Part shown: piece after piece, positions 23,633 to 64,000 of the stretch
How positions within the stretch are numbered: the stretch's first letter is position 1
Layout: each line of letters begins with the position of its first letter
Source: a virus
Taxonomy: Duplodnaviria > Caudoviricetes
Virus record (IMG/VR): IMGVR_UViG_3300029288_000106
Location: 1 to 64,000 of that record
DNA length: 64,000 nt
Direction: 5' to 3' (one strand)
Translations under genes and position numbers: made by a program
Notes under the pieces: generated by a model
What the model saw: the letters and a program-made list of their open reading frames with translations, nothing else
The model's database searches: none
Told to the model about the DNA's origin: nothing

Positions 23633-23956
23633 TTATTGTTCATCTTGTATTCTGGGTATAGTAAAATTAACTTGCTCTGCAGGAGGATAATTTTCAATTG
23701 CATGAGCTTTTACAACATGTACCTCAACTAACTCAAAAAATATTTCTGGTATATTATTAGTTATATTAAAAATTTTTTGTAATAATAAAAGTACTTTATT
23801 AGACTTTCCACTTCTTATCTCTTCATCTAATTTATCTCTATCAACAACACCATCTCCAAAACTACAAAAGCGATACCCATTTATAACAGTACCACCAGCA
23901 CTTCGAGGTTTAATACTCAAAACCTCATCAACAGTCATTTCAAAATTGACTTTCAT
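23633..23956 (-). CDS. Hypothetical protein
   Basis: ORF abutting neighbours. Confidence 0.5.
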   Translation of the reverse strand: MKVNFEMTVDEVLSIKPRSAGGTVINGYRFCSFGDGVVDRDKLDEEIRSGKSNKVLLLLQKIFNITNNIPEIFFELVEVHVVKAHAIENYPPAEQVNFTIPRIQDEQ

Positions 23957-24600
23957 TATTTTTTTTCTCCTGTAGGAAAAGAAATATAAGAAGGCCTTTT
24001 TATCTCAACATTCAAAGCTATTCCACCTCTTGCTTTCATTGTGATTGAAAGCTTGAAAGTTTTAGGCTCACATGCTTTTGTCCAATCATCAGCTATTCTA
24101 TTAGCAAGAGCTTCGATAAACATACCTTCATTTCGAAAGCTCTGAAAATAGAATTTCATACTCTTACTTTCAATACATGCTTTATTTGGGGTGTATTTTA
24201 TAACTATATAATACAAATCAGGATAACTTGTCAATGGACACACAGCTGAAAGCTCATCAAATGGAACAGTAATTTCAAAATCATTTTTTGAATTAGGATT
24301 ATCAAAAGTTTTAAGTATTCTATAATCTGGATGCTCGAATTTATGAAAAGAAATGCCTTTTCCTGGCGCAATTGCATCTGGGCTGTCTAGAAGTTCTTGA
24401 TCTGTATTTTTAATTTCACTTGTGTGTTTTTTATATGCTTCTATTTCAAGCATAAATTTTTCTTGTACATCTGGACGCATTGCTTTAAGAAAACTTATTT
24501 GTGTGTCTATAGGCATACAAATAAACATTTCACAAGCTAAATCGTGATCTAATATTTTCCCAGCTTCCATACTAATCCCTTTCATCTGCTTTTTTAACAA
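23956..24600 (-). CDS. queF: preQ0 reductase (NADPH-dependent, type I) with N-terminal extension
   Basis: Catalytic CPLTSYPD, QueF motif ESKSMKFY, RNEGMFIE, ARGGI. Confidence 0.88.
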   Translation of the reverse strand: MLKKQMKGISMEAGKILDHDLACEMFICMPIDTQISFLKAMRPDVQEKFMLEIEAYKKHTSEIKNTDQELLDSPDAIAPGKGISFHKFEHPDYRILKTFDNPNSKNDFEITVPFDELSAVCPLTSYPDLYYIVIKYTPNKACIESKSMKFYFQSFRNEGMFIEALANRIADDWTKACEPKTFKLSITMKARGGIALNVEIKRPSYISFPTGEKK

Positions 24601-36256: not shown

Positions 36257-37342
36257 TCAAAATAAAGTTTTAATGGCTCTAAACTCTTCGATTGACGGAG
36301 CAATGCCTTTTGCTAATAACTGAGAAAAATACATTACATTAACTTTCTGTCGCTCGTGATGAGATGTTTCTAAAGCCAGTAAATCGATATCTAATCCTTT
36401 CAAGTAGCTTTCTATCTTTTCTTTCTCTTCTTCAGTATAAGCTGTTGTATAATGAGGATTAGTAACATTAGGTCTAATCTTTGCTTCTTCTGATACAACA
36501 ACAGCTAATGGAGGTAAAGTAAAATCAAACTCTCCTTTAATATTACATTTAGGTACAACGACATTACCAAAAGCAGCACTCTTTAACCACGACGTACTAT
36601 CTACTGAATAAAATGGAAATCGCTGTATCATATCAACAGATGTTACAGCAAAACCATGTACTTTAAGTTGAGGATTAACTTCAGCAATTATTTGAAAACA
36701 CTGATACGCAAATGTAAGAAAATCAGCTTTCCTCAAACCAGTAGCCATTCCACCTAAACCAATATACTCATATTCTTCAGCATATTTTTTCAACCACTTA
36801 AAATCTTCAAGAAAATGAAATACTGGAAGAGGTTTTAAACCATTTGACTCCATATATTTCTGATTTTCCCATGATTTTTCAGCATTGTAAATAATATCAA
36901 GATTAACATAAGCATGAAGCTGATCTTTGTATTTATGTACAAATGCAATGTACTCATCAAGGTACTTCCTAACTTCTGTATTATCAGCAAGGGAAAAATC
37001 TGCCATCCCCTGAACCATGCTTCTCTGTTTTTCTGCAAAAAATATTTGTGCATTTGAATCCAGCCTTTCTCTAAACTCCTCTTCTGAAAATGTTCTTATT
37101 CCTTCCACCTTTTCTGAATTAACTGTTGAATTGCTATTAATCAAACCTGTCATTGCATTAAGCAACGAATGTGCTCCTGAGTCCATAAATATACTTAATT
37201 TAGAGTTGCTGTCTAAAAGCTTTGCTACATCTTTTCCTTTCCAAAACGTTTCAAGCGAAGCAACTTCCCCTGACAACAATTTATCAGTCCAAAATCCTTC
37301 TTTATTAGATGTAGCAAGATTTGCCATATAAATATATTTCAT
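36257..37342 (-). CDS. dpdA: DpdA-like 7-deazaguanine DNA transglycosylase (TGT fold)
   Basis: FMDSGAHS, NLDII, PVFH, YIGLGG, VHGFA, YSVDSTSW; full preQ1 pathway in the window. Confidence 0.75.
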   Translation of the reverse strand: MKYIYMANLATSNKEGFWTDKLLSGEVASLETFWKGKDVAKLLDSNSKLSIFMDSGAHSLLNAMTGLINSNSTVNSEKVEGIRTFSEEEFRERLDSNAQIFFAEKQRSMVQGMADFSLADNTEVRKYLDEYIAFVHKYKDQLHAYVNLDIIYNAEKSWENQKYMESNGLKPLPVFHFLEDFKWLKKYAEEYEYIGLGGMATGLRKADFLTFAYQCFQIIAEVNPQLKVHGFAVTSVDMIQRFPFYSVDSTSWLKSAAFGNVVVPKCNIKGEFDFTLPPLAVVVSEEAKIRPNVTNPHYTTAYTEEEKEKIESYLKGLDIDLLALETSHHERQKVNVMYFSQLLAKGIAPSIEEFRAIKTLF

Positions 37343-38067
37343 TTCACTAATTGCTCCTGTCGAGAATCATAAATTAAAATAGCTTGTTTTGGTATATTGT
37401 TATTTTTTAGCATACTATCAAGATTTTCTAAATAGACTAATATTTCTGGCCACCAAGTATCAAGATCTAAAGCTTGAGCCAGATCACAAAGCTTTCTAAG
37501 CAAAGGCAAATCCCAATCTCTATATACGTTATAATCAAAAGAAGTTTCTTTAGCTTTACAACCAAACAACCAATTCCTTCCATATTGCCTTTTAGTTAAT
37601 CGAGCTATGCCTTGCTTATTGCCATCAATATGCATATGAGGCAAGGCACAATGCAAAGGCTTAATAGAATGAATCTGGCATAAATTATCTTTTAAAAACC
37701 GACATCTTTTACTATCATTTTGATAAGCTTTAATCTCGTAACTCTTTTCATTTATCTTAACCACAAAATTATGGCATTTTTTTATATCAAGAACAGTAAG
37801 GTCATCAACATAATTATCAAAACAAACAGCTTTACTTGCTAAATACACCAACGAAACAGGCCTTTTTGAACAACACTCTCCACAAGTACTACACTTAAAA
37901 TTACGAAAGAACTTTTCAGAAATTTCAACCTTTTTTGGAGGACTAACTTTTAACTTATAATTCTTTGCAAAAGTAATTGTAATATCATGTTTGGTTAGTC
38001 GATAAATATATTGAAACATATAAACAACTGAGCCAAGCAAATTCTCATCATATTTCTCAAGAATCAT
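37339..38067 (-). CDS. YkgJ/FliB-like cysteine-cluster protein
   Basis: FKCSTCGECC..CRFL..LCQIH..KPLHC..P. Confidence 0.75.
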   Translation of the reverse strand: MILEKYDENLLGSVVYMFQYIYRLTKHDITITFAKNYKLKVSPPKKVEISEKFFRNFKCSTCGECCSKRPVSLVYLASKAVCFDNYVDDLTVLDIKKCHNFVVKINEKSYEIKAYQNDSKRCRFLKDNLCQIHSIKPLHCALPHMHIDGNKQGIARLTKRQYGRNWLFGCKAKETSFDYNVYRDWDLPLLRKLCDLAQALDLDTWWPEILVYLENLDSMLKNNNIPKQAILIYDSRQEQLVK

Positions 38068-38978
38068 CAGAAAAATCCTTTTTGTTCTTCTTTTACTTTA
38101 ATTTGTGAATACATATAACTCTTCACTTCATATGATGGATAATGTGTTTTAAATAAAGACAAATTTTTGTTCAATTGAGCACCACAATTAAATTTCTTCA
38201 TGCCTCTCTGATACAAATCTCTCAGTACATAAATATCAAGCCATTCCATCATATTAGATGGAAGTTCCCAGTACTTACCAAAATTTGCTAAATCATAAGC
38301 TATGTCTTTTTGTATACCCACAACACGAACTGCAATTAACTGCTTAGCCATACAAAAACAATAAACAAAATAACCTACATGTTGAATTGCATAATCATAA
38401 CAACGAATATATCGATTAGTTGGAAACATTATTTTAAATGTGTTAGGATCAGCAAGTTTATGCTCTACCCACTCATCATGTAGAAGTTTTACTGCATTAC
38501 TATCAACTTCGCTTGACATGAATGATCTTGTTTTTACTTTATATCTTTCTAACTGTTTAAACGGATATATTAATCGTTGATATCTTTTTTTCTTATTTGG
38601 ATACGAATTAGGATTTAAAACTTTCTCAAGATCGTATCCAATTTCAATAAAAGAGTGAGCACCAGACAAAAAAACTTCAGGGTAGAGAGAATAAATAGGC
38701 CCTAATTTTATCAAGTAATCAATAAGTTTTCTTTGTATTTTATCATTCTCTGGATTGAAACAGAAACTTTTAAATCGGCCCTGAACAGAAGGAAGAAGAA
38801 GTATATTTCCTTCAAAAACAATCAAGCCATACATATTTCTTATTTCATCTAAATTGAAGTATGTATTCAACACTGGAAGAGAAAAATTATGTACTCCCTT
38901 ATTATCAAGATCCTCTATAGAAGTTAATTTCTTCTTATATTGATGAAGATCGCTGAGTATTGTTTGTATTTTGCTCAA
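38067..38978 (-). CDS. GNAT-fold protein resembling DUF2156/Fem aminoacyl-tRNA-dependent transferases
   Basis: KKKRYQRL basic helix, LHDEW, C-terminal RGMKKFNCG...NLSLFKTHYP pattern. Confidence 0.55.
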   Translation of the reverse strand: MSKIQTILSDLHQYKKKLTSIEDLDNKGVHNFSLPVLNTYFNLDEIRNMYGLIVFEGNILLLPSVQGRFKSFCFNPENDKIQRKLIDYLIKLGPIYSLYPEVFLSGAHSFIEIGYDLEKVLNPNSYPNKKKRYQRLIYPFKQLERYKVKTRSFMSSEVDSNAVKLLHDEWVEHKLADPNTFKIMFPTNRYIRCYDYAIQHVGYFVYCFCMAKQLIAVRVVGIQKDIAYDLANFGKYWELPSNMMEWLDIYVLRDLYQRGMKKFNCGAQLNKNLSLFKTHYPSYEVKSYMYSQIKVKEEQKGFF

Positions 38979-38986
38979 TTAAAAAC

Positions 38987-39172
38987 TCATACAATATTAT
39001 ATTTTTCTACTATGTCACAAATCCACTTAACTCTACCTGGTGTCATTTCATATTCTGGATGATCTACCATATCAATTATAAATTTCTTCTCTTTCTCAGT
39101 TAATCGAGTAGCTAGTAAATCAATAGCTTTTAATAATCTTTTTGCTTCTTCAATATCTATACTATCGCTCAT
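38987..39172 (-). CDS. Small hypothetical protein
   Basis: Likely start MSDSID overlapping the queE stop. Confidence 0.5.
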   Translation of the reverse strand: MSDSIDIEEAKRLLKAIDLLATRLTEKEKKFIIDMVDHPEYEMTPGRVKWICDIVEKYNIV

Positions 39173-39851
39173 GTGTCGCTCCAGGCCATAATACTTTATG
39201 TATTTGTAGAGAATAACTAACATCAGGTATCATATGAGCTTCATCTATCATCATTTCAGCTAATGCCTTTGGCCAGCCAGTAAAAATATCTGAATATTTG
39301 ATAGCAGGACTAAATACTTTCCTGGCCTTCCATGTATCTCTATTAGCTAAAACCAACCCCCGAGCTATGTAAAAATCATTAATTCCATCAATCACAAATT
39401 TAATAACATCACAATCCCGAAGTTGAAAAAAAGTCATAGCTCTCATTTGATCTTCCATTTTTGATGATGGAAGTTTATAATCAACAATCAAACGAAGATT
39501 TTCTTTAGCTAGCATATGATTAAATAAATCGTGTGAAACACTTAAACTGCCATTTGTCTCGATCGATACTCTATGTTTTCTATCAAGAAGACCAAGTACA
39601 AGTTGGGTAGTTTCTTCTTGAATTAAAGGTTCTCCACCAGTTATTGTGACTTTTGGTAAGATATTGAGTTTTAATATATCTTCAACAGATTTTAACTCTT
39701 TTGCCTTCTGGTCTTGAGCATATTTTGTATCACAAAATTCACACCTTAAGTTACATCCTCTTAAACGAATAAATGTACAGAGCTCGCCTGCTCCATTAAA
39801 TCCATTAACTTCACCATCGATACTATCAAAAATAGCCTGAATATTTAACAT
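39162..39851 (-). CDS. queE: 7-carboxy-7-deazaguanine synthase (radical SAM)
   Basis: IFDSIDGE, FIRLRGCNLRCEFCDT, ITGGEP, IETNG, SLQIHK. Confidence 0.93.
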   Translation of the reverse strand: MLNIQAIFDSIDGEVNGFNGAGELCTFIRLRGCNLRCEFCDTKYAQDQKAKELKSVEDILKLNILPKVTITGGEPLIQEETTQLVLGLLDRKHRVSIETNGSLSVSHDLFNHMLAKENLRLIVDYKLPSSKMEDQMRAMTFFQLRDCDVIKFVIDGINDFYIARGLVLANRDTWKARKVFSPAIKYSDIFTGWPKALAEMMIDEAHMIPDVSYSLQIHKVLWPGATHER

Positions 39852-46193: not shown

Positions 46194-46977
46194 AATAATT
46201 CAAAGTCTATTAACTGCCAGATCTGATAATGATATATACATCGCTGAATGTTGTGTCAATGAATGTCGATTAGACGGCTGGGCTATACGAAAGTCTTATT
46301 CTAATCCACTCACAATAGGTTATGAAATCAAAATAAGTAAATCAGATTTTTTGACAGATAAAAAATGGACTGGCTATTTGTCATATTGTAATGAATTGTA
46401 CTTTGTTTGTCCGTCTCATCTTATACAGCCAAATGAAGTGGGAGAACAAGTAGGATTGATGTGGGTAGCATCAACTGGAACAAGAATTTATACAAAGAAA
46501 AAAGCTACCTACAGAATTGTAGAAGATAAGTATATTAATCAAATTTTGAGATCAGTACTTTTTAATAGATGTGTAGTTAGAGAAAATTATTGGGGTAATG
46601 CACAGCCAGACAAATCAACGTTTTGGAAAAGATGGTTGCAGAAAAAAGACGAAGATAAAGAATTAGGCTGGAATGTTAGTGAAAAAGTAAGACAATTAGT
46701 TGAAGAGCGTGTTGATAAAGTGAAAAGGGAAAATAGTAGCTTAAGAAGAAAAATTGAAGAATTTAAACGCCTTGAAGAATTACTAATAAAACTTAATTTT
46801 AATCCTGAATATTTTGATTTGAATGAAGTTCAAAATCGTATTAAAGGAGCAATACCCAAAGATTTACTTTGGACAATTGATCAAGTTATAGATAGACTTG
46901 ATCGAACAAAGAAAAAACTATTACTTTTAGAAAGGACAAAAGCAGATGGACAAAACACAGATGACCCAAGGAATTGA
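46183..46977 (+). CDS. MmcB-like PD-(D/E)XK nuclease
   Basis: RLDGWAI..GYEIKISKSDFLTD.KW..Y..YCNELYFVCP. Confidence 0.8.
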   Translation: MNAEIIQSLLTARSDNDIYIAECCVNECRLDGWAIRKSYSNPLTIGYEIKISKSDFLTDKKWTGYLSYCNELYFVCPSHLIQPNEVGEQVGLMWVASTGTRIYTKKKATYRIVEDKYINQILRSVLFNRCVVRENYWGNAQPDKSTFWKRWLQKKDEDKELGWNVSEKVRQLVEERVDKVKRENSSLRRKIEEFKRLEELLIKLNFNPEYFDLNEVQNRIKGAIPKDLLWTIDQVIDRLDRTKKKLLLLERTKADGQNTDDPRN

Positions 46978-47497
46978 GATGTTTCTTAAAGGCGCAGGAA
47001 TTGATTTAACAAATGAACATTTCCAGAAAACTCCAGCTAGAGTTACTAAAGCTTTTGCTGAGACATTTTTATCTGGATACGAAATGAATATTCAATCAAT
47101 CCTCGAAACAACATTTACTGAAAATAAATATGATCAGATGGTAGTAATAAGTAATATACCATTCTGTAGTATGTGTGCACACCATTTGCTTCCTTTCTAT
47201 GGTCATGCGAAGATCGGATATTTACCAGATGGTAAAGTCTGTGGCTTATCAAAATTAGCTAGAGCATTAGAAGTACACTCGCGAAGATTACAAATTCAAG
47301 AAAAGCTTACCCAAGATCTTGCTGAAGATCTAATGAAGTATCTCAAACCTAAAGGCGTTGGAATTATTTTAGAAGCTGTTCATTTGTGCATGACAGAGCG
47401 AGGAGTGATGAAATCAGGAAGTTTAACAAAAACATCTTGTTTACTTGGTGCATTTAGAGACGATGCATCAACACGACAAGAATTCTTGTCTTTCTAA
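46946..47497 (+). CDS. folE: GTP cyclohydrolase I
   Basis: TPARV, SMCAHHLLPFYG, GLSKLAR, RLQIQE, HLCMTERG. Confidence 0.95.
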   Translation: MDKTQMTQGIEMFLKGAGIDLTNEHFQKTPARVTKAFAETFLSGYEMNIQSILETTFTENKYDQMVVISNIPFCSMCAHHLLPFYGHAKIGYLPDGKVCGLSKLARALEVHSRRLQIQEKLTQDLAEDLMKYLKPKGVGIILEAVHLCMTERGVMKSGSLTKTSCLLGAFRDDASTRQEFLSF

Positions 47498-52926: not shown

Positions 52927-53354
52927 TTTATGAATAAAAAACAACTATTAAAAAATAGTAAAACAAGCAAAATTAAAAATAAACATTTTACTTCGCCCGG
53001 TAATACTTTTTACGGCATTCAAAATAAAACAACTAAAGTATTATTAAGTTTATCAGTATCAGGAACAGGATCAACTGAAAGTTATGAATGTAGCCTTCAA
53101 GAAGATAGATTTACTAAAACTCCTTGGCTTACTACTTCTAAAGAAATAGCCAAAAAACTTTTAGAGGAAGGAATTGATTGGTATAATTCAAATTTAGAGT
53201 GCCCAGGAAATGCTTGGATGTTTAATGATGGTAAATTTAAAAACTATGAAATTGTAGAAATAATACTACAAATAAAATAATTTTTAAAAATCAAATTTTT
53301 TACTTTTGTATTTTATAAAAACGTATATATTAAAAAGAAGAAAGGGCAAAACAG

Positions 53355-55081: not shown

Positions 55082-55843
55082 ATGGGCAGTAGTGTAGTAG
55101 TAGTTTATTCAGGCGGATTAGATAGCACAGTATTACTAAATCATGCTGTAAAAACAATTGATCGAGTGTTAGCAATAAACTTTAATTACGGATCAAAACA
55201 TAATAATAAAGAACGAGATGCAGCTAAAGCTGTTTGTGAAGAACTTTCAGTTCCACTTTTTCTTGTTAATCTTCCAACTGATATAATTTGGATTGATCCG
55301 ACCTATCATTCTGAACGACTTGGGACTTTACTTAAGTCAAATCTAATGGCAAAAGGAAACGAAATACCAGATGGTCATTATGCTGAAGATGTGATGAAAA
55401 AAACAGTTGTCCCATTTAGAAATGGTATTATGCTATCAATAGCAGCTGGATTTGCTGAAAGTCATGATTGTAAATTTTTATGGTTAGCTAGCCATTCGGG
55501 CGATCATCATATATACTGTGATTGTAGACCAGAATTTACAAATGCTATGGCTTCTGCTGTACATTTTGGTACATATACTAATATTGAATTGAGAGCTCCG
55601 TTCAGCAATAAAAATAAAGCAGAAATTGTGAAACAGGGAGTTGAAGAAAATGCTCCAATGCATTTAACTTGGAGTTGTTATAAAGGTGGAAATAGACCGT
55701 GTCTAACTTGTGGCACATGCATTGAAAGAACCGAAGCATTCAAATTAGCTGGAATAAAAGATCCAACTCTATCCGATGCTGAATGGAAAATAGCATTAAC
55801 TCATCTGGAAAAAACAAACAATTTGATGAAAGAACAATCATGA
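55082..55843 (+). CDS. queC: 7-cyano-7-deazaguanine synthase
   Basis: SGGLDST, YGSKH, VPFRN, YCDCRPEF, TWSCY..CLTCGTCIER. Confidence 0.95.
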   Translation: MGSSVVVVYSGGLDSTVLLNHAVKTIDRVLAINFNYGSKHNNKERDAAKAVCEELSVPLFLVNLPTDIIWIDPTYHSERLGTLLKSNLMAKGNEIPDGHYAEDVMKKTVVPFRNGIMLSIAAGFAESHDCKFLWLASHSGDHHIYCDCRPEFTNAMASAVHFGTYTNIELRAPFSNKNKAEIVKQGVEENAPMHLTWSCYKGGNRPCLTCGTCIERTEAFKLAGIKDPTLSDAEWKIALTHLEKTNNLMKEQS

Positions 55844-56067
55844 AGATAACAAAACAAAAAACAGAAAGACTCATAAAAAAACTCAGTCCTATTGATAATG
55901 TAGAATTTTTTCAGGCCAATCCAAAATACGTCCGGGTAAATGACTTTGCTAAAGCAAATAATATCACTGTACAAACAGTACTAAATAAGGCACGGAATGG
56001 AAGCATTGAAGCAAGGATGTTCATGAACTTAATTGTTGTGAGAAATAAAAAGGAAAATATCACATGA
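55840..56067 (+). CDS. Small HTH protein
   Basis: VNDFAKANNITVQTV. Confidence 0.5.
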   Translation: MKITKQKTERLIKKLSPIDNVEFFQANPKYVRVNDFAKANNITVQTVLNKARNGSIEARMFMNLIVVRNKKENIT

Positions 56068-56225
56068 TTGCTGTAATTCTCATAAGCCTTGCAGTATTAA
56101 TGATTTACCCCCCAGCTTTTCTTCCCGTTTTACTTATACTCGGGGCGTTGTGTATAGGAGCTAAATGTAGATAAACTTCACAGTGTGTGAAGTAATAATA
56201 ACTTAACTCTAGAAAGGGACAAAAA

Positions 56226-56636
56226 ATGAAGTTAGCATGGTACCGAATTATTGTATTGATCTTACAATTACTGACTGGTAAGACTGACAGAATATTACCA
56301 AGAACAGAAATCAATTGTAAGCCAGAAGCGCTGTATTTGTTGAAGCAGCTGAAAAAAACTGCAGCAACAACAGCTAACATCGAATTCTGGATGTGGTTGG
56401 TCACGAAAATTATTGAACTTATAAAAACGATGCAGGAAGAAACAGCTACGGAAATACCTACTTTAGTTGGTTTACCAGACGTAACACTTGGTCTTGCTAA
56501 AATAGTGGGAGATCAACCTACACAACTTCCGCCAGCAATGGAAAGTATTGATGGGGCTATTGCTTTCTTACAACCAGCACCAGCTAAAACAGAAGAACCG
56601 GCCAAAACAGAAACAAATCAGCCAGAACAGTCGTAA
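56226..56636 (+). CDS. Hypothetical protein
   Basis: ORF with RBS. Confidence 0.55.
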   Translation: MKLAWYRIIVLILQLLTGKTDRILPRTEINCKPEALYLLKQLKKTAATTANIEFWMWLVTKIIELIKTMQEETATEIPTLVGLPDVTLGLAKIVGDQPTQLPPAMESIDGAIAFLQPAPAKTEEPAKTETNQPEQS

Positions 56637-56652
56637 TTATATAAAGACCAGT

Positions 56653-56723
56653 GGGGCTGTAGTTTAACTGGCAAAACGCTTTATTACGGTAAAGAATTAT
56701 AGGTTCAAATCCTATCGGCTCCA
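56653..56723 (+). tRNA. tRNA-like RNA with Ala identity elements (G3:U70, A73) and a non-canonical 6-nt anticodon loop; CCA not encoded
   Basis: Acceptor GGGGCTG/CGGCTCC, D arm GTTT/AAAC, anticodon stem CTTTA/TAAAG with loop TTACGG, T arm ATAGG-TTCAAAT-CCTAT. Confidence 0.8.
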
Positions 56724-56746
56724 GTAAATATATTAGGTAATTTCAA

Positions 56747-57637
56747 TTGAAAGGATTCACTATGGACCTCAAGTTTGGATGGCTCAAAGAACCAGATGAT
56801 CCTCGTGACTACACAGAGCAAAATATTCAAACTAAAAAACCAGAGTTTGCTAGACTCAAACTTCCGTTTTTTAAACAGGAAAAAGTTATAAATAATGACC
56901 GATACGTTATAAAAGGCGTATATCAAAAACGCAATGACTGCGTTGCCCACACAGGTTATCATCTTGTTGGATTTATCTGTAAGAAGATTTTTGGTAAAGA
57001 TGTTAAAATATCAAGAAGACATCTATATTACTTACTTCGATTTCTGATGCTAAATGATGAAAAACCAGTCAACTCAGAAATTGTATATCCATCTGAAGAT
57101 ACAGGTGGGTGGATTCGAAAAATGATTCAATCTATCTCTCTTGGCATTGTACCTGAAGACTACATTCGATATGTTGCAGACAAATATAATGAAAAACCTG
57201 ATCCATATCTTGTAGCACAATTCGCTGGATCTTACAAAGCTTTGAAAGCAATAAAACTCGATTATCCTGGAATAGATAGAGAAGAACTTATTGTAAGTAT
57301 GAAAAAATGGTGTGAAGCAGGTTGGCCAATTGCTTTTGGAACACTTCTTGGAAAGTCATACTATGAAAGTTTTGAGAATGGTGGTATAATTAAAGCACCT
57401 AATTTCTTAAAAGAAGGAATACCAATAGGTGCTCACGCTATGATGATTCCGGCTGGCTTCGACGAAAATACAAAGAGATTTCGACTTCAAAATTCTCACC
57501 TTGGTTTCGGAGATGAAAATTGTTGTGGCTATATTGATGAAGATGTATTTAGAATGAAACGAAACCAAAAACCAATTGCTCAAGATATCTGGGTTGGAAT
57601 TGACTACCAAGCTCTTATAAAAGAACAATTCAATTAA
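56747..57637 (+). CDS. Papain-like C1 cysteine peptidase
   Basis: FGWLKEPDDPRD, Q..NDCVAH, GAHAM, QNSH.GFGD..GYI. Confidence 0.8.
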   Translation: MKGFTMDLKFGWLKEPDDPRDYTEQNIQTKKPEFARLKLPFFKQEKVINNDRYVIKGVYQKRNDCVAHTGYHLVGFICKKIFGKDVKISRRHLYYLLRFLMLNDEKPVNSEIVYPSEDTGGWIRKMIQSISLGIVPEDYIRYVADKYNEKPDPYLVAQFAGSYKALKAIKLDYPGIDREELIVSMKKWCEAGWPIAFGTLLGKSYYESFENGGIIKAPNFLKEGIPIGAHAMMIPAGFDENTKRFRLQNSHLGFGDENCCGYIDEDVFRMKRNQKPIAQDIWVGIDYQALIKEQFN

Positions 57638-57676
57638 ACTAACCCAAAAAATAATCAAAAGACAAGAGGAAAACTA

Positions 57677-58513
57677 ATGGATACAGAAATGTGGGATCTA
57701 TTATATATCGCTGATAAAAAAGATAGCCATGAAGCTGACGACTTTATAGATAACTACACAGCTATATTTAACAGAAAGCTATGGAAAGAACGCTATCCAG
57801 ATATTCCATATCCACATTATTCTCATGCTGAAAAAGTATTTCCATACCGAGCTCGTTACGCAGAATGGATTGAAAGGCACTGTGGAATTGTCATTCCAGT
57901 TGGAAATAATATATGCTTTAGTTCAACATTAAGAGACGAAGGAAAAGGAGTAAGATTTGCTGATTTTGACATAATCACTCGAAACAAACATAGATGGGAT
58001 TTATATCTTGAAATCATAACAGAAGAAGAAATGGATATTCGATTTGCTCGGGCTTGTAAAATAGTTGGTCGGCCTTATTTCAAGATTGGATTGGTTCTTG
58101 ATTTTGGTTTGCCTTTCGGTAAATTAGGATGGGCAATTGGAGCTTTACTTAATCAATGGTATTGTTCGCAAGCTTGTTTTTATGTAGATACAGGAAAACG
58201 TGCCAGACAATCACCAATACGAAGAGGAATTTGGATAAGACAACAAGGACGAAAGTTTTTAGGTAATTTAGGTGAAAATGAAGTTAATTATCAGATTATA
58301 AATGATGGAAAAGTTCAAATTCAACTTCAAAAAACAGTATCAAAAATAGTAGCAACTGATTGTGAAGGAAGAAAGTGTACAGTAGTAGAATTTGAACACA
58401 ATCAAGATATAAATCAGGAAATACTAGAGTTTATATTTATGAAAACTCTTATATATACAAAAAATGTAGGAGCAGAAAATATCAAAAGTATTGATATTGA
58501 AAACAAATCATGA
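57677..58513 (+). CDS. Permuted NlpC/P60 (YiiX-like) protein
   Basis: YSHAE..GRPY..WYCSQ. Confidence 0.6.
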   Translation: MDTEMWDLLYIADKKDSHEADDFIDNYTAIFNRKLWKERYPDIPYPHYSHAEKVFPYRARYAEWIERHCGIVIPVGNNICFSSTLRDEGKGVRFADFDIITRNKHRWDLYLEIITEEEMDIRFARACKIVGRPYFKIGLVLDFGLPFGKLGWAIGALLNQWYCSQACFYVDTGKRARQSPIRRGIWIRQQGRKFLGNLGENEVNYQIINDGKVQIQLQKTVSKIVATDCEGRKCTVVEFEHNQDINQEILEFIFMKTLIYTKNVGAENIKSIDIENKS

Positions 58514-59171: not shown

Positions 59172-60053
59172 TTACTTTTTTCCTAATATCTTATTATAAG
59201 CATTAATATAAAATTGAACAAGATTTTTTGGGTGCCAATTTTGTAAAATCCATTCGCGGCTTTTTTGTTGATATTCTCTGAGCTTGTCTGTATTAACAAG
59301 TAGATTGTCCAGCACTGTATCAAGAACATTCAAATCAGCATAAACCCAAGCAGGATGAAAAAAGTTATTAATAACTGCTAAACCAAAACAAGACCCTTCT
59401 AATGATGTCCGATGAAATGTATTATTTATCACATCATCTACTAGAATGTCACTATTTCTCTTCTCTAGTAAATTATCTTCATAAGAAAAATTTGAAAAAA
59501 CTTTTACTATAGCTTTATCTGTAAATTTAGATAAAATTTCACATACCTCAGGTTTTCCTTTTGTTCCAATCTGATTTACTGGAAGAGAATTGGTTGGAGC
59601 AAATGCAATTATTGGCTTTTCATTTTTCTTTAACAAAGGAGTATATTCTTCAGGATTGATAAGATTTGGTAAGGTCATGAGTTTTGGATACTGTCTCATT
59701 TGTAGTGGTTGAGATATACAATAAACATATGGTGTAATTCGTGCATACCAATCAAGAGGCATTCTCTGTGGTACAGAATGAAGCTGAATAATTATTTTCT
59801 TTTTCCTTATCCATTCTTCTGGAAGTAAATTTATTTCATTATGAAAATGAATGATATCTGCTTCAGCAACTAAATTTTGTATTTGCTTATCTTCAGTATT
59901 GAAAATAATATCAGATGGAAATTTCCGGCCATCTCTATACTGAGTTCTATGAGCAATCCATCGAACTTTAAGATCAGTATAATTATTCAAACATTTGCAG
60001 ATCTCATAAGGAGCAGCGGCCAAAGCGGTTTTTGATACATGTATTATATTCAT
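59172..60053 (-). CDS. Glycosyltransferase (GT-B-like)
   Basis: ADIIHFH, IAFAPT..KG, SDILVD..SLEG. Confidence 0.7.
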   Translation of the reverse strand: MNIIHVSKTALAAAPYEICKCLNNYTDLKVRWIAHRTQYRDGRKFPSDIIFNTEDKQIQNLVAEADIIHFHNEINLLPEEWIRKKKIIIQLHSVPQRMPLDWYARITPYVYCISQPLQMRQYPKLMTLPNLINPEEYTPLLKKNEKPIIAFAPTNSLPVNQIGTKGKPEVCEILSKFTDKAIVKVFSNFSYEDNLLEKRNSDILVDDVINNTFHRTSLEGSCFGLAVINNFFHPAWVYADLNVLDTVLDNLLVNTDKLREYQQKSREWILQNWHPKNLVQFYINAYNKILGKK

Positions 60054-61783
60054 TTCTTTATAATATCCACCACGAGAGATAAAGGACGTTTTGGATTTTG
60101 AACTCTCTCATCAAAATCTGATGTTCTAGTTACCATTCCTTTTGAATAATCAATAGCTTTAATAACTGGAGTTCCATCCATCTTATAATATTGTAGGTAT
60201 TCAATTCTTGAATCAGAAAAAAGACTTTTTTGAATCAGATAATCAACACAATCAAACCTAGGAAACCATTTATGGCCTCGAGTTCCATCTGCATTTACAC
60301 CTCCTACTGGATCAAATACAACATCCCCATTCTCATTTTTTACTGATCGATTTTGATAAATATCACAACCATAATCAGGTAGAGATAATCTAAATAATCC
60401 TCCAGGCCGAAGAACTCTATATATTTCATCCATAACAGCTATTAATTTTGGATTAAAACAAATATGTTCAAAAACATCTTCGGATTGTATTGAATCTACT
60501 GAATTATCTGGTAGAGGAATTGGATCAGTAATATCATGATGAATACTTGTGCATGAACTCTCTTCTAATGTAAGTCCGATTAAATTATCATATTCTGGAA
60601 GAAGAGGAACAGTTCCAATATAAAGATGGATATCTTTTTTCTGTTTTATAGCAGACCAAGATAAAACAGGAAGTTTAGACCATGAATTTAAAGCCTCACA
60701 AATACAATTAATTTCATCGTCTGACATTTCAGGATAAAGAGGAAGGGTAAGGATTTGATTGCAAATTTTTTCAGTATTTACTAAATTATCACTTCCTTTT
60801 ATTCTATTCAAATAGCCAGATTGAAGATGAACAGGAATAGGATAATGAATAGCAACCCCAATATTGCAAGATTTTAGAAAGTCTATTAATTTACTCCTAG
60901 AATTACAGATATCTCTTACAACGCAGAGATGCCAAACGGGCTCAGAAAGAATATCCACTTTCTGAGGAAGTAATTTTTTAGGATCAAGAAATTTAGAATA
61001 TTTATAAACTATATTTCTTCTTTTTCCATTATCTTCACTTAAATAAGTAAGTTTTGCATTAAGTACAGCAGCCTGAATTTCATCCATTCGAGAATTCCAA
61101 CCAGGAAATAAACTATTTTGTTTTTCTTGCCATCCATATTGTCTTAAGCTTATTAGTTGTTTAAAAACTTCTTGATCTTTAGTAACCACAGCTCCAGCAT
61201 CACCTAAAGCACCTAAATTCTTAGTAGGATAAAAACTAAAAGCCCCGGCATCCCCAAATGATCCAACTCGTCTACCATTGTATGAAGCACCATGAGCTTG
61301 ACAACAATCTTCCACAACTTTTAAATTCAATCTTGAAGCAATAGCACAAACAGCTTCAATTTTACAGGGTTGGCCATACAAATGAACAGGAATAATTGCT
61401 TTTGTCTTAGGACTAACTGCATTTTCTATTTTATTTGGATCAATAGTAAGTGTATGTTCTTCTATATCTACAAAAACAGGAATTGCTCCAATCATTTCAA
61501 TTGCAGCAACTGTAGCTACAGAAGTATGAGATACAGTTATAACTTCATCGCCGGAACAAACTCCCACAGCTTTTAAAGCAAGGGCTAAAGCTTCTGTTCC
61601 ATTACTTACACCAACACAATAATTAGTGTTACAGTAATTTGCAAATCTTTCCTCAAATATTTTTACTTCTTCTCCCAGAATATACCAGCCACTATTCAAG
61701 ACTTTATCAATTCGAGAATTAATAATATCCCTGTACTTATCAAAACTTGCTTTTGGACAAACAACTGGAATAACTTTATCCAT
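60050..61783 (-). CDS. DegT/DnrJ/EryC1/StrS (FdtB-like) sugar aminotransferase fused to a C-terminal SAM methyltransferase domain
   Basis: SGWYILG, PVHLYG, EDCCQAHGA, SFYPTKNLGALGD; C-terminal DNSVD..VFEHI..RVLRPGG. Confidence 0.9.
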   Translation of the reverse strand: MDKVIPVVCPKASFDKYRDIINSRIDKVLNSGWYILGEEVKIFEERFANYCNTNYCVGVSNGTEALALALKAVGVCSGDEVITVSHTSVATVAAIEMIGAIPVFVDIEEHTLTIDPNKIENAVSPKTKAIIPVHLYGQPCKIEAVCAIASRLNLKVVEDCCQAHGASYNGRRVGSFGDAGAFSFYPTKNLGALGDAGAVVTKDQEVFKQLISLRQYGWQEKQNSLFPGWNSRMDEIQAAVLNAKLTYLSEDNGKRRNIVYKYSKFLDPKKLLPQKVDILSEPVWHLCVVRDICNSRSKLIDFLKSCNIGVAIHYPIPVHLQSGYLNRIKGSDNLVNTEKICNQILTLPLYPEMSDDEINCICEALNSWSKLPVLSWSAIKQKKDIHLYIGTVPLLPEYDNLIGLTLEESSCTSIHHDITDPIPLPDNSVDSIQSEDVFEHICFNPKLIAVMDEIYRVLRPGGLFRLSLPDYGCDIYQNRSVKNENGDVVFDPVGGVNADGTRGHKWFPRFDCVDYLIQKSLFSDSRIEYLQYYKMDGTPVIKAIDYSKGMVTRTSDFDERVQNPKRPLSLVVDIIKK

Positions 61784-62168
61784 TTTTATTTCCTATCATT
61801 TCTTCAAATGTCAAGTAGTCGTTAGAATCATATGAATGTGAAGCAACAACTAACAAAATTGAGTCTTCTTCAGCAAAAATTTCCTTTGTCCATACAAAAG
61901 TATCAACAAATAACGATTGTCCTCTTTCCAAGCATACCACATTATTTGATTGATTAGTTTGTTTGATTTCAATCTCAATCTTTCCACTTATACAAATATA
62001 AAACTGTTTACATAATTTATGAGCATGACCTCCTCGAGTATGTCCTTGAGGCACATTTTTTATTATGAAAATTCTCTTTGGAATAAAAGGGATATTCGAG
62101 AATTCAATTGGAATAAGATCTCCTCCTCGAATACTATCTTGCAAGATCGGAAAAGTATGTATATTCAT
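61776..62168 (-). CDS. FdtA/QdtA-family sugar 3,4-ketoisomerase (cupin)
   Basis: IPFIPKRIFII..RGGHAH..YDSNDY. Confidence 0.9.
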   Translation of the reverse strand: MNIHTFPILQDSIRGGDLIPIEFSNIPFIPKRIFIIKNVPQGHTRGGHAHKLCKQFYICISGKIEIEIKQTNQSNNVVCLERGQSLFVDTFVWTKEIFAEEDSILLVVASHSYDSNDYLTFEEMIGNKNG

Positions 62169-62183
62169 ATTATCATTCCTTAT

Positions 62184-63527
62184 CTAAACACGTTTTTGAA
62201 ACATTTCTCTCCATGTTCCTTCTAGTAGTAATACCATCTCTGTTACTTCTTGATCAGACATTGCTGAAAAATTAACTTTATATTCTCTTCCTGAATGAAA
62301 GAAAATATCATAAAAGTCTCTGTGACTCTTTATCCTATGCTTTGCAAGTATGTAATCATAAAGAGGAGAACCAGGATATGGACAAGTATAAGTACAAGCA
62401 AATTGAATTCGAGGATCTATTTTAAGAATTGTTTTCAATAGTTCAAGTGAAGCTTTTGCATCAGCTTTTGTTTCAGTCAACTGACCTACCATAATGCTTG
62501 TAGTAACAAAAATTCCTATTCGAGCTAATCTTTTAATAACACTAACAACCATTTCTGTAGTATAATTTTTTCCTATCGTTTGTAATATTCGATCTGATCC
62601 AGATTCAATACCAATACCTATAACTCTACAACCCGAATTTTTCATATCAATAAGTGTTGAATCATCCATCCTTGACAATATATCAATTCGAGAAGATACT
62701 GAATAACCTACTTTTCTATCTAAATTTTCTATTCCTTTAACAATTTGCTTTGCTCGATTTGGAGAACACAAAACTGTATCATCAGAAAAGTACAAAACAT
62801 TGCCATCAAATCTCTTCAAAGCATCTGATGCTTCTTCCATCATTATATTAACTGGCCTATAACGAGGTTTACTGTGATGGTAACAAAAATTACAATTATA
62901 TGGGCATCCTCTTCCTCCATGAACATTTATAACTCTATCTGCTTCATCCCAATGCCATTGAGTATTTCTATAGTATTTTCCAATTGGTAACCATTTTTCA
63001 GCTGGAAACAAATCATACTGAACAGGCGGAAGTTTAGTAAGATCTTCAATATAATCTCCCACTCCTGTATTTGTAAATTTATTTCCTTCTTTTATTACAA
63101 GTCCTTTAATATCAAATATACTGTTATTTCTGCGTAAAGCTTTTACAATTCGATCAAGAGTAATTTCTCCTTCGCCAATCACTCCTATATCAGCACCTGT
63201 AATTTCAATAGCAAATTCAGGAATAGGTGAAACCATCTGGCCACCAACAATAATTGGAAAATCTCTTCCTGCCTTATTCAACATTTCAATCATTTCTCTA
63301 TTTTGTTTCAACTCAGGATATAAACTTCCAAATCCAACAACAAGGGGTTTTAATAACATAATCTGATTAACTATATTTTGTAAATTACCTTCTTTAAAGA
63401 ATACTCTTACATCTTCTCCTTGTGCTATTAGATAACTAGCTAAATAAGGATAAGATAAAGGAAAAGTATAAGTAATATCACAAGATACTAAAACAACTGG
63501 TCCATTTTTGTTTTTGCTTACAATCAT
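62184..63527 (-). CDS. Cobalamin-binding radical SAM protein
   Basis: IIVGG..GEGE B12 domain; GRGCPYNCNFC; GIESGS. Confidence 0.9.
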   Translation of the reverse strand: MIVSKNKNGPVVLVSCDITYTFPLSYPYLASYLIAQGEDVRVFFKEGNLQNIVNQIMLLKPLVVGFGSLYPELKQNREMIEMLNKAGRDFPIIVGGQMVSPIPEFAIEITGADIGVIGEGEITLDRIVKALRRNNSIFDIKGLVIKEGNKFTNTGVGDYIEDLTKLPPVQYDLFPAEKWLPIGKYYRNTQWHWDEADRVINVHGGRGCPYNCNFCYHHSKPRYRPVNIMMEEASDALKRFDGNVLYFSDDTVLCSPNRAKQIVKGIENLDRKVGYSVSSRIDILSRMDDSTLIDMKNSGCRVIGIGIESGSDRILQTIGKNYTTEMVVSVIKRLARIGIFVTTSIMVGQLTETKADAKASLELLKTILKIDPRIQFACTYTCPYPGSPLYDYILAKHRIKSHRDFYDIFFHSGREYKVNFSAMSDQEVTEMVLLLEGTWREMFQKRV

Positions 63528-63530
63528 ATT

Positions 63531-64000
63531 TTAAACTTTCTTAAACAGATACGAGGCGTGGTATTCATCATTTTTTACATCTACTACATATTCTACTTTA
63601 TCTACTAATTCAAGTTTATTCAATTTAAACATCTCAAGCAGCTCGTTTTCATTATAATGAATTTCAAAAACCGGAACTTCATAAGCAAGCTTCTTTAAAT
63701 ATTGAGTAGGTTTAGATTTACAAGCTATTGATCTATGTAATATTACATATTGTTTTGATACTCTAGTTGCTTCAGAAATATGCTGAAGTGCATTAGAAAC
63801 ATGAATAAGTATACTTCCTAGAATAACAAAATCAAATTCATTATCGGAAAATGGAAGATTTGCTCCGTCAGCAACAATAAAATTAGCAGTTGAATAATAT
63901 TCTTTAGCTTTTTGAATCATTGCTTCTGAATAATCTACACCGGTATATTTAAGCTTTGTTTGAAAAAGTATAGATAATACCTCATAGTAATATCCAGTAG
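63531..64000 (-). CDS. Class I SAM-dependent methyltransferase (partial, extends beyond window end)
   Basis: Frame open to the edge: TGYYYEVL..YTGVDYSEAMI..LPFSDNEFD. Confidence 0.85.
   Translation of the reverse strand, partial: TGYYYEVLSILFQTKLKYTGVDYSEAMIQKAKEYYSTANFIVADGANLPFSDNEFDFVILGSILIHVSNALQHISEATRVSKQYVILHRSIACKSKPTQYLKKLAYEVPVFEIHYNENELLEMFKLNKLELVDKVEYVVDVKNDEYHASYLFKKV

Follow-up and report, generated by a model that had tools for sequence, protein, structure and literature searches.

A phage-encoded, alanine-type tRNA with a six-nucleotide anticodon loop as a candidate alanine donor for a 7-deazaguanine DNA modification pathway

Phage tRNA genes are normally taken as translation helpers. 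Alanyl-tRNA synthetase (AlaRS) recognises the G3:U70 pair and charges its substrate without needing the anticodon, and both the tRNA-like domain of transfer-messenger RNA (tmRNA) and alanine minihelices are AlaRS substrates which depend on G3:U70 and have no anticodon. Dedicated non-proteogenic tRNAs and tRNA-dependent hypermodification of DNA are already known. The non-proteogenic tRNA-Gly species NP1-3 of Staphylococcus aureus are glycine donors for FmhB, FemA and FemB, and the first three pairs of their T stems, A49-U65, U50-A64 and A51-U63, are tied to weaker binding of elongation factor Tu (EF-Tu) (Rietmeyer et al., PMC7826273). The Mom protein of phage Mu is a GNAT enzyme that transfers glycine from Gly-tRNA-Gly to the N6 of adenine in double-stranded DNA (PMC13219725). 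Here we describe a tRNA-shaped gene of 71 nucleotides (nt) at 56653-56723 (+) of a 64,000-nt stretch of the virus record IMGVR_UViG_3300029288_000106 (hereafter the window), the product of which may be an alanine carrier outside translation, and compare it with these systems.

The cloverleaf of the phage RNA can be read directly from the sequence and is matched over model positions 1-71 by the Rfam tRNA family RF00005 with 54.6 bits (E 1.2e-10, gathering score 29). An earlier note on this DNA had described intact acceptor, D and T arms with G3:U70 and the discriminator A73; sequence reading, Rfam and ARAGORN all bear this out. The acceptor stem is composed of the pairs G1:C72, G2:C71, G3:U70, G4:C69, C5:G68, U6.G67 and G7:C66 (56653-56659 with 56716-56722), the D arm has 4 base pairs (bp) and an 8-nt loop with G18 G19, the variable region comprises 4 nt, and the conserved bases U8, A14, G18 G19, T54-C56 and A58 are all present. 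The alanine identity set consists of G3:U70, A73 and G2:C71, and G3:U70 is unchanged in a second allele of the gene (allele B, described below; the window carries allele A). Position 20, where G is a minor AlaRS determinant, is occupied by C in allele A and by U in allele B. Several unrelated contigs of phages and metagenomes (L003, L015, L018/L025 and L027) contain genuine tRNA-Ala(UGC) genes which start with the same 19 nt as the phage gene if either C or T is accepted at position 16. Because the D-arm sequence alone is common to many AT-rich phage tRNAs of other identities, the alanine call rests on the acceptor stem (G1-G4, G3:U70, G2:C71 and A73). No other tRNA is present in the 105,263-bp virus record that contains the window. 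The same starting 19-mer is found in a tRNA array at L020:940-1010 (+), in a tRNA-like fragment with a 3′ end unpaired with its 5′ end, which is probably a decayed or chimeric tRNA.

A canonical elongator tRNA has a 7-nt loop with a 3-nt anticodon, whereas the loop of the phage RNA comprises six bases in both alleles. The central loop is one base short in the Rfam tRNA alignment, and ARAGORN reports a ‘tRNA-???’ with a 2-nt ‘anticodon’ and no tmRNA. The earlier statement that no register gives a 7-nt loop was upheld: if A31-U39 is opened, the stem shrinks to 4 bp and the loop grows to 8 nt, and with a shifted 3′ strand three pairs are left. In the RNAfold predictions for both alleles, position 32 pairs with position 37, which yields 6 bp and a tetraloop; the closing pair is U.G in allele A and C-G in allele B. 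Of the alternative description as a 6-nt loop or a 6-bp stem with a UNCG-type tetraloop, the length was borne out, but the UNCG type is not conserved: UACG in allele A is replaced by UACA in allele B. The alleles have in common six loop bases, UAC in the centre and the ability of 32 and 37 to pair. A literature search yielded no description of 6-nt anticodon loops or ‘anticodon-less’ RNAs of this kind. An unrelated IMG/VR phage (L012:9820-9890, -) encodes a tRNA, not of the alanine type, in which a loop of six bases (CCGUAA) is combined with a variable region of 4 nt; it lies near ParB-like and terminase genes and has no Fem-like gene among ten neighbouring open reading frames (ORFs).

The region of the gene is present in landfill and groundwater metagenomes of nine studies. 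Contigs, not raw reads, of four runs from four other studies were aligned to 56000-57400, and none of them contains an indel in the tRNA gene. Two of the four runs are identical to the window, and the other two, ca. 97-98% identical overall, carry six substitutions in the tRNA (allele B), by which the loop UUACGG is converted to CUACAG, still six bases long. The suspicion that a base might be missing from the loop is thereby settled at the contig level; independent assemblies agree on six bases, and the short loop is not an assembly error. None of the six substitutions breaks a stem or alters a universally conserved base, and the closing 32:37 pair is strengthened from U.G to C-G. The chance that six random changes spare the stems is ca. 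0.03-0.10, and that they spare the stems and the conserved bases ca. 0.01-0.03. Allele B is found on a 54-kb contig (L002) and in a third, mosaic strain (L048), the flanks of which mix A-like and B-like sites while the six tRNA differences stay together; two discrete alleles are therefore in circulation among recombining strains. In an alignment of 11,117 bases, the divergence between the strains amounts to 1.33% overall and to 4.0% at fourfold-degenerate sites, compared with 8.5% in the tRNA. The tRNA sequence therefore lacks the almost absolute constraint typical of tRNAs that decode, and its ‘anticodon’ positions differ between the alleles, as expected if the loop is unread. A retained shape combined with free loop letters would be the pattern expected of a non-decoding but functional tRNA-shaped RNA; a drifting pseudogene would need some luck to match it.

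A third, more distant allele was not found, since the protein encoded downstream of the tRNA has only its own 96-99% cluster in the protein database and no QueC between 100% and 56% identity exists there. In the cultured phage genomes, neither the 3.5 kb around the tRNA (megablast) nor the downstream protein (tblastn) found a match. IMG/VR contained nothing for the downstream protein or the exact 3′ half of the tRNA, and none of its loci retrieved via QueC exceeds 49% identity or has a tRNA close by. A metagenome scan with the 5′ 19-mer retrieved normal tRNAs and one bacterial look-alike (L021, see below) but no other relative with a 6-nt loop.

The A-U pairs noted earlier at 49-65 and 51-63 of the T stem are confirmed in the sequence, and the first three T-stem pairs of the phage RNA equal those of S. 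aureus NP1-3 tRNA-Gly (PMC7826273). Among 138 distinct tRNAs in the other loci fetched for this analysis, the combination A49-U65/U50-A64/A51-U63 occurs once, in a tRNA-Val, and the 51-63 pair is G-C, G-U or C-G in seven of the eight ordinary tRNA-Ala genes of these loci. Since alanine is a weakly EF-Tu-binding amino acid for which normal tRNA-Ala bodies compensate, a T stem of this composition on an alanine tRNA should, by analogy, lower the affinity for EF-Tu. The phage RNA thus resembles NP1-3 as a putative dedicated tRNA outside translation that serves a GNAT-fold aminoacyl-tRNA transferase, the latter being a candidate in the phage. NP1-3, however, keep a normal 7-nt loop and an anticodon (PMC7826273), whereas the phage loop is structurally disabled; the amino acid is glycine in S. 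aureus and predicted to be alanine in the phage; and the phage RNA is phage-encoded with a DNA base as putative acceptor in place of a peptidoglycan precursor. With tmRNA and the minihelices it would share anticodon-independent alanylation via G3:U70, but in contrast to tmRNA it is a complete 71-nt cloverleaf without an mRNA-like part.

The candidate transferase, P0003, is a protein of 303 residues encoded between queE and dpdM. Its genome also codes for FolE, QueE, QueC, QueF and DpdA-like and DpdM-like proteins, which, judged from their sequences, constitute a preQ1 route into DNA; the assignment of the DpdM-like protein draws on the description of DpdM as YkgJ-like (PMC10516641). The AlphaFold (AF2) model of P0003, calculated from a family of 16 sequences, has a predicted local distance difference test (pLDDT) score of 87. 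Foldseek lists A-PGS, MprF, L-PGS, Sbb17 and FemX as top matches (E 2e-10). Structural comparison with VIA gave Z-scores of 18.0 for the free-standing DUF2156 protein 2hqy, 15.6-13.5 for the aminoacyl-phosphatidylglycerol synthase domains of MprF, L-PGS and A-PGS, 13.6 for the aminoacyl-tRNA-dependent peptide synthases Sbb17/Sba18 and 12-13 for FemX, against the lower scores of 10-13 for tandem GNATs that use acyl-CoA. The transferase which the earlier note had placed next to dpdA thus indeed shows a DUF2156/MprF/Fem fold by structure prediction, and the model makes P0003 a candidate aminoacyl-tRNA-dependent transferase. P0003 itself has no match to PF09924, PF13480 or PF02388; two or three of the 16 family members weakly match PF09924 or PF13480 (E ca. 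0.007), and a sequence-profile search of the PDB with the family returned nothing below E = 1.

P0003 homologues lie within queF/queC/queD/queE/folE clusters in all five other contigs fetched (L028, L029, L038, L039 and L040), e.g. in the order QueF, P0003 homologue, QueC, QueD in L028. Proteins of ca. 290 residues with a DUF2156 fold and no Pfam assignment are embedded in phage 7-deazaguanine clusters in every contig examined. The family suggests an undescribed tailoring step, and because of the DUF2156-type fold and the 7-deazaguanine gene neighbourhood, it is reasonable, if unproven, to suppose an aminoacyl-tRNA-dependent step at the amine of preQ1. The literature contained no description of DUF2156 proteins together with preQ1. 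The likeness to Mu Mom lies in a GNAT-superfamily enzyme of a phage which, as predicted for P0003, uses a charged tRNA to hypermodify the phage's own DNA. Mom is, however, a single GNAT that uses the ordinary tRNA-Gly of the host and targets adenine (PMC13219725), whereas P0003 is a tandem GNAT of the DUF2156 type in a 7-deazaguanine pathway and the phage brings its own tRNA. In one of the P0003-bearing contigs, the QueE-like radical SAM gene (L040:4582-6300, -; 572 residues) contains intein-splicing and HNH domains, which suggests an intein inside queE.

Based on these features we propose the following scenario. Host RNase P together with 3′ processing might release the RNA from a plus-strand transcript that also covers queC, whereupon a host enzyme would add the CCA. 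Host AlaRS would then charge it via G3:U70 and A73, as anticipated from established AlaRS biology and the sequence features of the acceptor stem. The closed anticodon hairpin together with the A49-U65/U50-A64/A51-U63 T stem would keep the Ala-tRNA off EF-Tu and the ribosome, and the alanyl group would be passed to P0003 (38067-38978), which is encoded in the queE-dpdM-dpdA operon. The likely acceptor would be the aminomethyl group of preQ1/dPreQ1, from which an aminoacylated 7-deazaguanine in phage DNA might result. Judged from the sequence, the phage RNA is probably, by a modest preponderance, a charged but non-decoding alanine carrier. For the more specific reading, that it is the alanine donor of the DUF2156-like enzyme of the dpdA operon, we estimate a probability of roughly 0.4-0.45. 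That the phage makes an undescribed alanyl-preQ1-type 7-deazaguanine in its DNA with its own non-decoding tRNA-Ala as cofactor appears doubtful at present.

The alanine-donor reading, already favoured in the earlier note and here the best explanation, draws on the identity set, the short loop, the T stem and the transferase fold. Several observations weigh against it. The tRNA and P0003 genes are 17.7 kb apart and on opposite strands, while the pathway genes themselves are scattered in the phage genome. The short loop was expected to recur in other phages carrying the transferase, yet an aberrant tRNA lies within 10 kb of the P0003 homologue in none of the five other phage contigs; a special tRNA is therefore not a general requirement of the P0003 family. 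Three of the five have an alanine tRNA with an ordinary anticodon loop within this distance. In L028 and L040 it is an ordinary tRNA-Ala(UGC), and L029 and L038 have none. L039 contains a tRNA-Ala(CGC) (L039:16514-16586, +) with a 3′ acceptor strand, CGGUAUCC, that does not pair with GGGGCCG, and which is either a damaged tRNA or an assembly error. P0003 itself stays below the Pfam thresholds, and tandem GNATs which use acyl-CoA also reach Z-scores of 10-13 against it. In allele A, both the hairpin (-1.2 kcal/mol, RNAfold) and its closing U.G pair have little stability. A tRNA divergence (6/71) exceeding the 4.0% at fourfold sites also fits relaxed constraint, and the conservation evidence is thin because it comes from a single phage lineage with two alleles. 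Finally, a promoter and terminator scan near the tRNA stayed at background level, and no promoter was recognised.

Anticodon-less alanine tRNA look-alikes also exist in bacterial loci and provide a precedent for an RNA of this kind. The first of them surfaced by chance in the 19-mer metagenome scan on a GC-rich, bacterial-type contig (L021). This look-alike (L021:8923-8998, +; Rfam 44.1 bits) has the acceptor GGGGCUG/CAGCUCC, A73, an encoded CCA and an anticodon stem of 8 bp with a GAAA cap. It starts 5 nt after a PF13480 (FemAB-like) gene of 329 codons (ORF L021:7928-8917) within a polysaccharide cluster that contains a GT1 gene, two UDP-glucose dehydrogenase genes, an AsnB-like gene and a Wzy gene. 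Three homologues of this Fem-like gene were sampled, in L043, L044 and L045/L046. In L043, an alanine-acceptor look-alike (L043:1840-1910, +) overlaps the 3′ end of a Fem-like gene, which is 52% identical to that of L021; its loop CGAAAG corresponds to a GAAA cap closed by C-G, and, like the phage gene, it is listed by ARAGORN as a ‘tRNA-???’ with a 2-nt anticodon. Both look-alikes and the phage RNA share a GGGGC-type acceptor, G3:U70, A73, normal D and T arms, A51-U63 and a closed anticodon hairpin. They differ in the hairpin, as the bacterial RNAs have GAAA tetraloops on GC-rich stems of 5-8 bp and the phage RNA UACG or UACA on an AU-rich stem. They differ also in the partner: PF13480-branch transferase genes abut the bacterial look-alikes, whereas P0003 is of the DUF2156-like branch and lies at the distance given above, a further point against its pairing with the phage tRNA, which is flanked directly by an orphan ORF and a C1-peptidase-like gene instead of a transferase gene. 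A look-alike with a long variable arm and an 8-nt anticodon loop was found at L045:4037-4127 (+), and at the same coordinates in L046 (ARAGORN ‘gcaa’; Rfam tRNA-Sec match 47.7 bits), 1 kb after a Fem-like gene and a sulfotransferase gene and between two AsnB-like genes. No tRNA-like RNA was detected in L044, which encodes a 45% homologue of the L021 Fem-like protein, or in L031, which carries the one homologue (38%) from a genome scan with this protein. No publication on anticodon-less tRNA-Ala look-alikes beside Fem-like genes was found in the literature.

The most probable rival is a decaying tRNA-Ala, in which a one-base deletion in the anticodon loop of the common ancestor of the known strains was followed by drift. 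This would accommodate an allele divergence at or above the fourfold rate, the changed anticodon positions and the lack of detected relatives beyond one lineage, and defective phage tRNAs without a Fem link do exist, as exemplified by the 6-nt loop in L012 and, unless it is an assembly error, the damaged acceptor stem of the tRNA-Ala in L039. Decay nevertheless seems unlikely; all six substitutions spare the stems and conserved bases (P ca. 0.01-0.10), one of them strengthens the 32:37 pair, the gene is the phage's sole tRNA and packed tightly between other genes, and the same architecture recurs beside Fem-like genes elsewhere (L021, L043). Moreover, drift leaves the unusual T stem and the alanine identity set unexplained. 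The earlier note had already listed simple decay as an alternative, and the structure-sparing substitutions, the T stem and the alanine set now disfavour it, though it stays a real rival. Less probable is a processing or stability element, in which the cloverleaf is kept only as an RNase P/RNase Z site between the queC and peptidase blocks of one transcript. The tight spacing (16 nt from the preceding and 39 nt from the following ORF), the absence of a recognised promoter or terminator nearby and a conserved structure with a freely varying loop agree with this possibility, but G3:U70, A73, a T stem of a given composition and a full D arm with G18 G19 would all be dispensable in a cleavage signal, and such a role would be compatible with charging.

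An alanine donor might also serve another acceptor, either in the glycan cluster 2.4 kb downstream or a protein or peptide target. The bacterial look-alikes lie in polysaccharide clusters and a glycan gene cluster begins at 59172; its nearest gene (59172-60053), however, is GT1-like, and searches with PF13480, PF09924, PF02388 and the P0003 profile detected no second Fem/DUF2156-like gene in the 105-kb record (ca. 68% complete), which makes this option improbable. Comparison of the P0003 family by hhalign with the ORFs 59172-60053 and 57677-58513 and with the L021 protein likewise gave nothing. Phages carry tRNAs that counter tRNA-cleaving defences, and a lone tRNA in a lytic-type genome might be a decoy or sponge for a host tRNA-targeting nuclease or a tRNA-binding enzyme. 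To mimic a target recognised by its anticodon loop, the RNA would need the 7-nt loop sequence of that target, whereas the phage loop is one base short and varies between the alleles at two of its six bases; because of this difference the decoy for anticodon nucleases considered earlier fits poorly and is very improbable. Hardly credible is a decoding tRNA with an unorthodox loop, e.g. one that promotes frameshifting or is read with U33 missing. Both alleles do retain a UAC triplet with a 5′ pyrimidine and a 3′ purine, but a UAC anticodon would place alanine at valine codons, the loop is predicted by RNAfold to close to a tetraloop, the window ORFs read normally under table 11, and the literature searched yielded no natural tRNA that functions with a 6-nt loop.

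Three further candidates were rejected. A suppressor or recoding tRNA is incompatible with the lack of CUA, UCA or UUA in the anticodon register and with ORFs that are normal under table 11. A full-length cloverleaf, placed between genes in a genome that looks lytic-type in the window, does not correspond to an attP remnant, although no integrase search was made. Mimicry of a TadA or TGT substrate is contradicted by the loss of G36 in allele B and the lack of U-G-U.

If the alanyl-preQ1 reading is correct, the phage RNA would be the first virus-encoded tRNA dedicated to DNA modification instead of translation. The new elements would be a virus-encoded donor tRNA, a structurally disabled anticodon loop and a possible link to 7-deazaguanine in DNA. 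A charged but non-decoding RNA would imply that viruses also carry tRNAs as metabolic cofactors, and the class of alanine carriers without an anticodon, seen at polysaccharide loci of bacteria, would then include viral members as well. Together with the tRNA, the enzyme with the predicted DUF2156 fold encoded in the dpdA operon suggests a testable new branch of 7-deazaguanine hypermodification, the addition of an amino acid to preQ1, which would parallel the recently elucidated tRNA-dependent Mom reaction. For annotators, the gene provides a reason not to discard ‘tRNA-???’ calls as pseudogenes.

Table 1. Features of the tRNA-shaped gene, its allele B substitutions and the surrounding pathway and neighbour genes (window coordinates)
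Feature	Position	Strand	Evidence or detail
tRNA-shaped gene, alanine-type acceptor, 6-nt anticodon loop, CCA not encoded	56653-56723	+	Rfam, ARAGORN
Acceptor stem, 5′ strand GGGGCUG	56653-56659	+	G3 at 56655 pairs with U70 at 56720
Anticodon arm, 5-bp stem CUUUA/UAAAG and 6-nt loop UUACGG (56684-56689)	56679-56694	+	sequence, Rfam, RNAfold
T arm AUAGG/UUCAAAU/CCUAU	56699-56715	+	A49-U65, U50-A64, A51-U63, G52-C62, G53-C61
Acceptor stem, 3′ strand CGGCUCC, and discriminator A73	56716-56723	+	A73 at 56723
Allele B substitution C>U	56672		tRNA position 20
Allele B substitution U>C	56684		tRNA position 32
Allele B substitution G>A	56688		tRNA position 36
Allele B substitution A>G	56692		tRNA position 41, U29-A41 to U.G
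Allele B substitution A>U	56695		tRNA position 44
Allele B substitution A>G	56709		tRNA position 59
QueF, preQ0 to preQ1 reductase	23956-24600	-	PF14489, 76.6 bits
DpdA-like DNA transglycosylase	36257-37342	-	phrog_887, E 4.8e-43
DpdM-like (YkgJ/CxxCxxCC) putative dPreQ1 methyltransferase	37339-38067	-	PF03692
P0003, 303-aa tandem-GNAT protein, predicted DUF2156/MprF/FemX fold	38067-38978	-	AF2 model, Foldseek, VIA
QueE-like radical SAM enzyme	39162-39851	-	PF04055, PF13353
FolE, GTP cyclohydrolase I	46946-47497	+	phrog_2197, E 2e-62
QueC	55082-55843	+	PF06508, E 4e-53
136-aa ORF, no family found	56226-56636	+	ends 16 nt before the tRNA
291-aa papain-like (C1) peptidase-fold protein	56762-57637	+	starts 39 nt after the tRNA; ESM Atlas match to Peptidase_C1 clusters, TM 0.84

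The gene belongs to a novel, uncultured tailed phage from landfill and groundwater that encodes a portal protein, a major head protein, a family A polymerase and a DnaB-like helicase. It has no close cultured relative; its DNA polymerase is at most 26% identical to that of any cultured phage. QueC, reported earlier as lying ca. 0.8 kb upstream on the strand of the tRNA, ends at 55843, exactly 810 nt before the tRNA in the same gene row. Relative to the window, strain B contains ca. 3.4 kb of extra genes upstream, including an ORF of 500 codons (L002:2732-6119 vs. window position 52963), and an extra ORF of 190 codons directly after the peptidase-like gene (L002:10897-11469 vs. window position 57642). 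The glycan-tailoring block (59172-64000, -) consists of the GT1-like gene, a DegT aminotransferase-methyltransferase fusion, FdtA, a B12-radical SAM enzyme and more methyltransferases.

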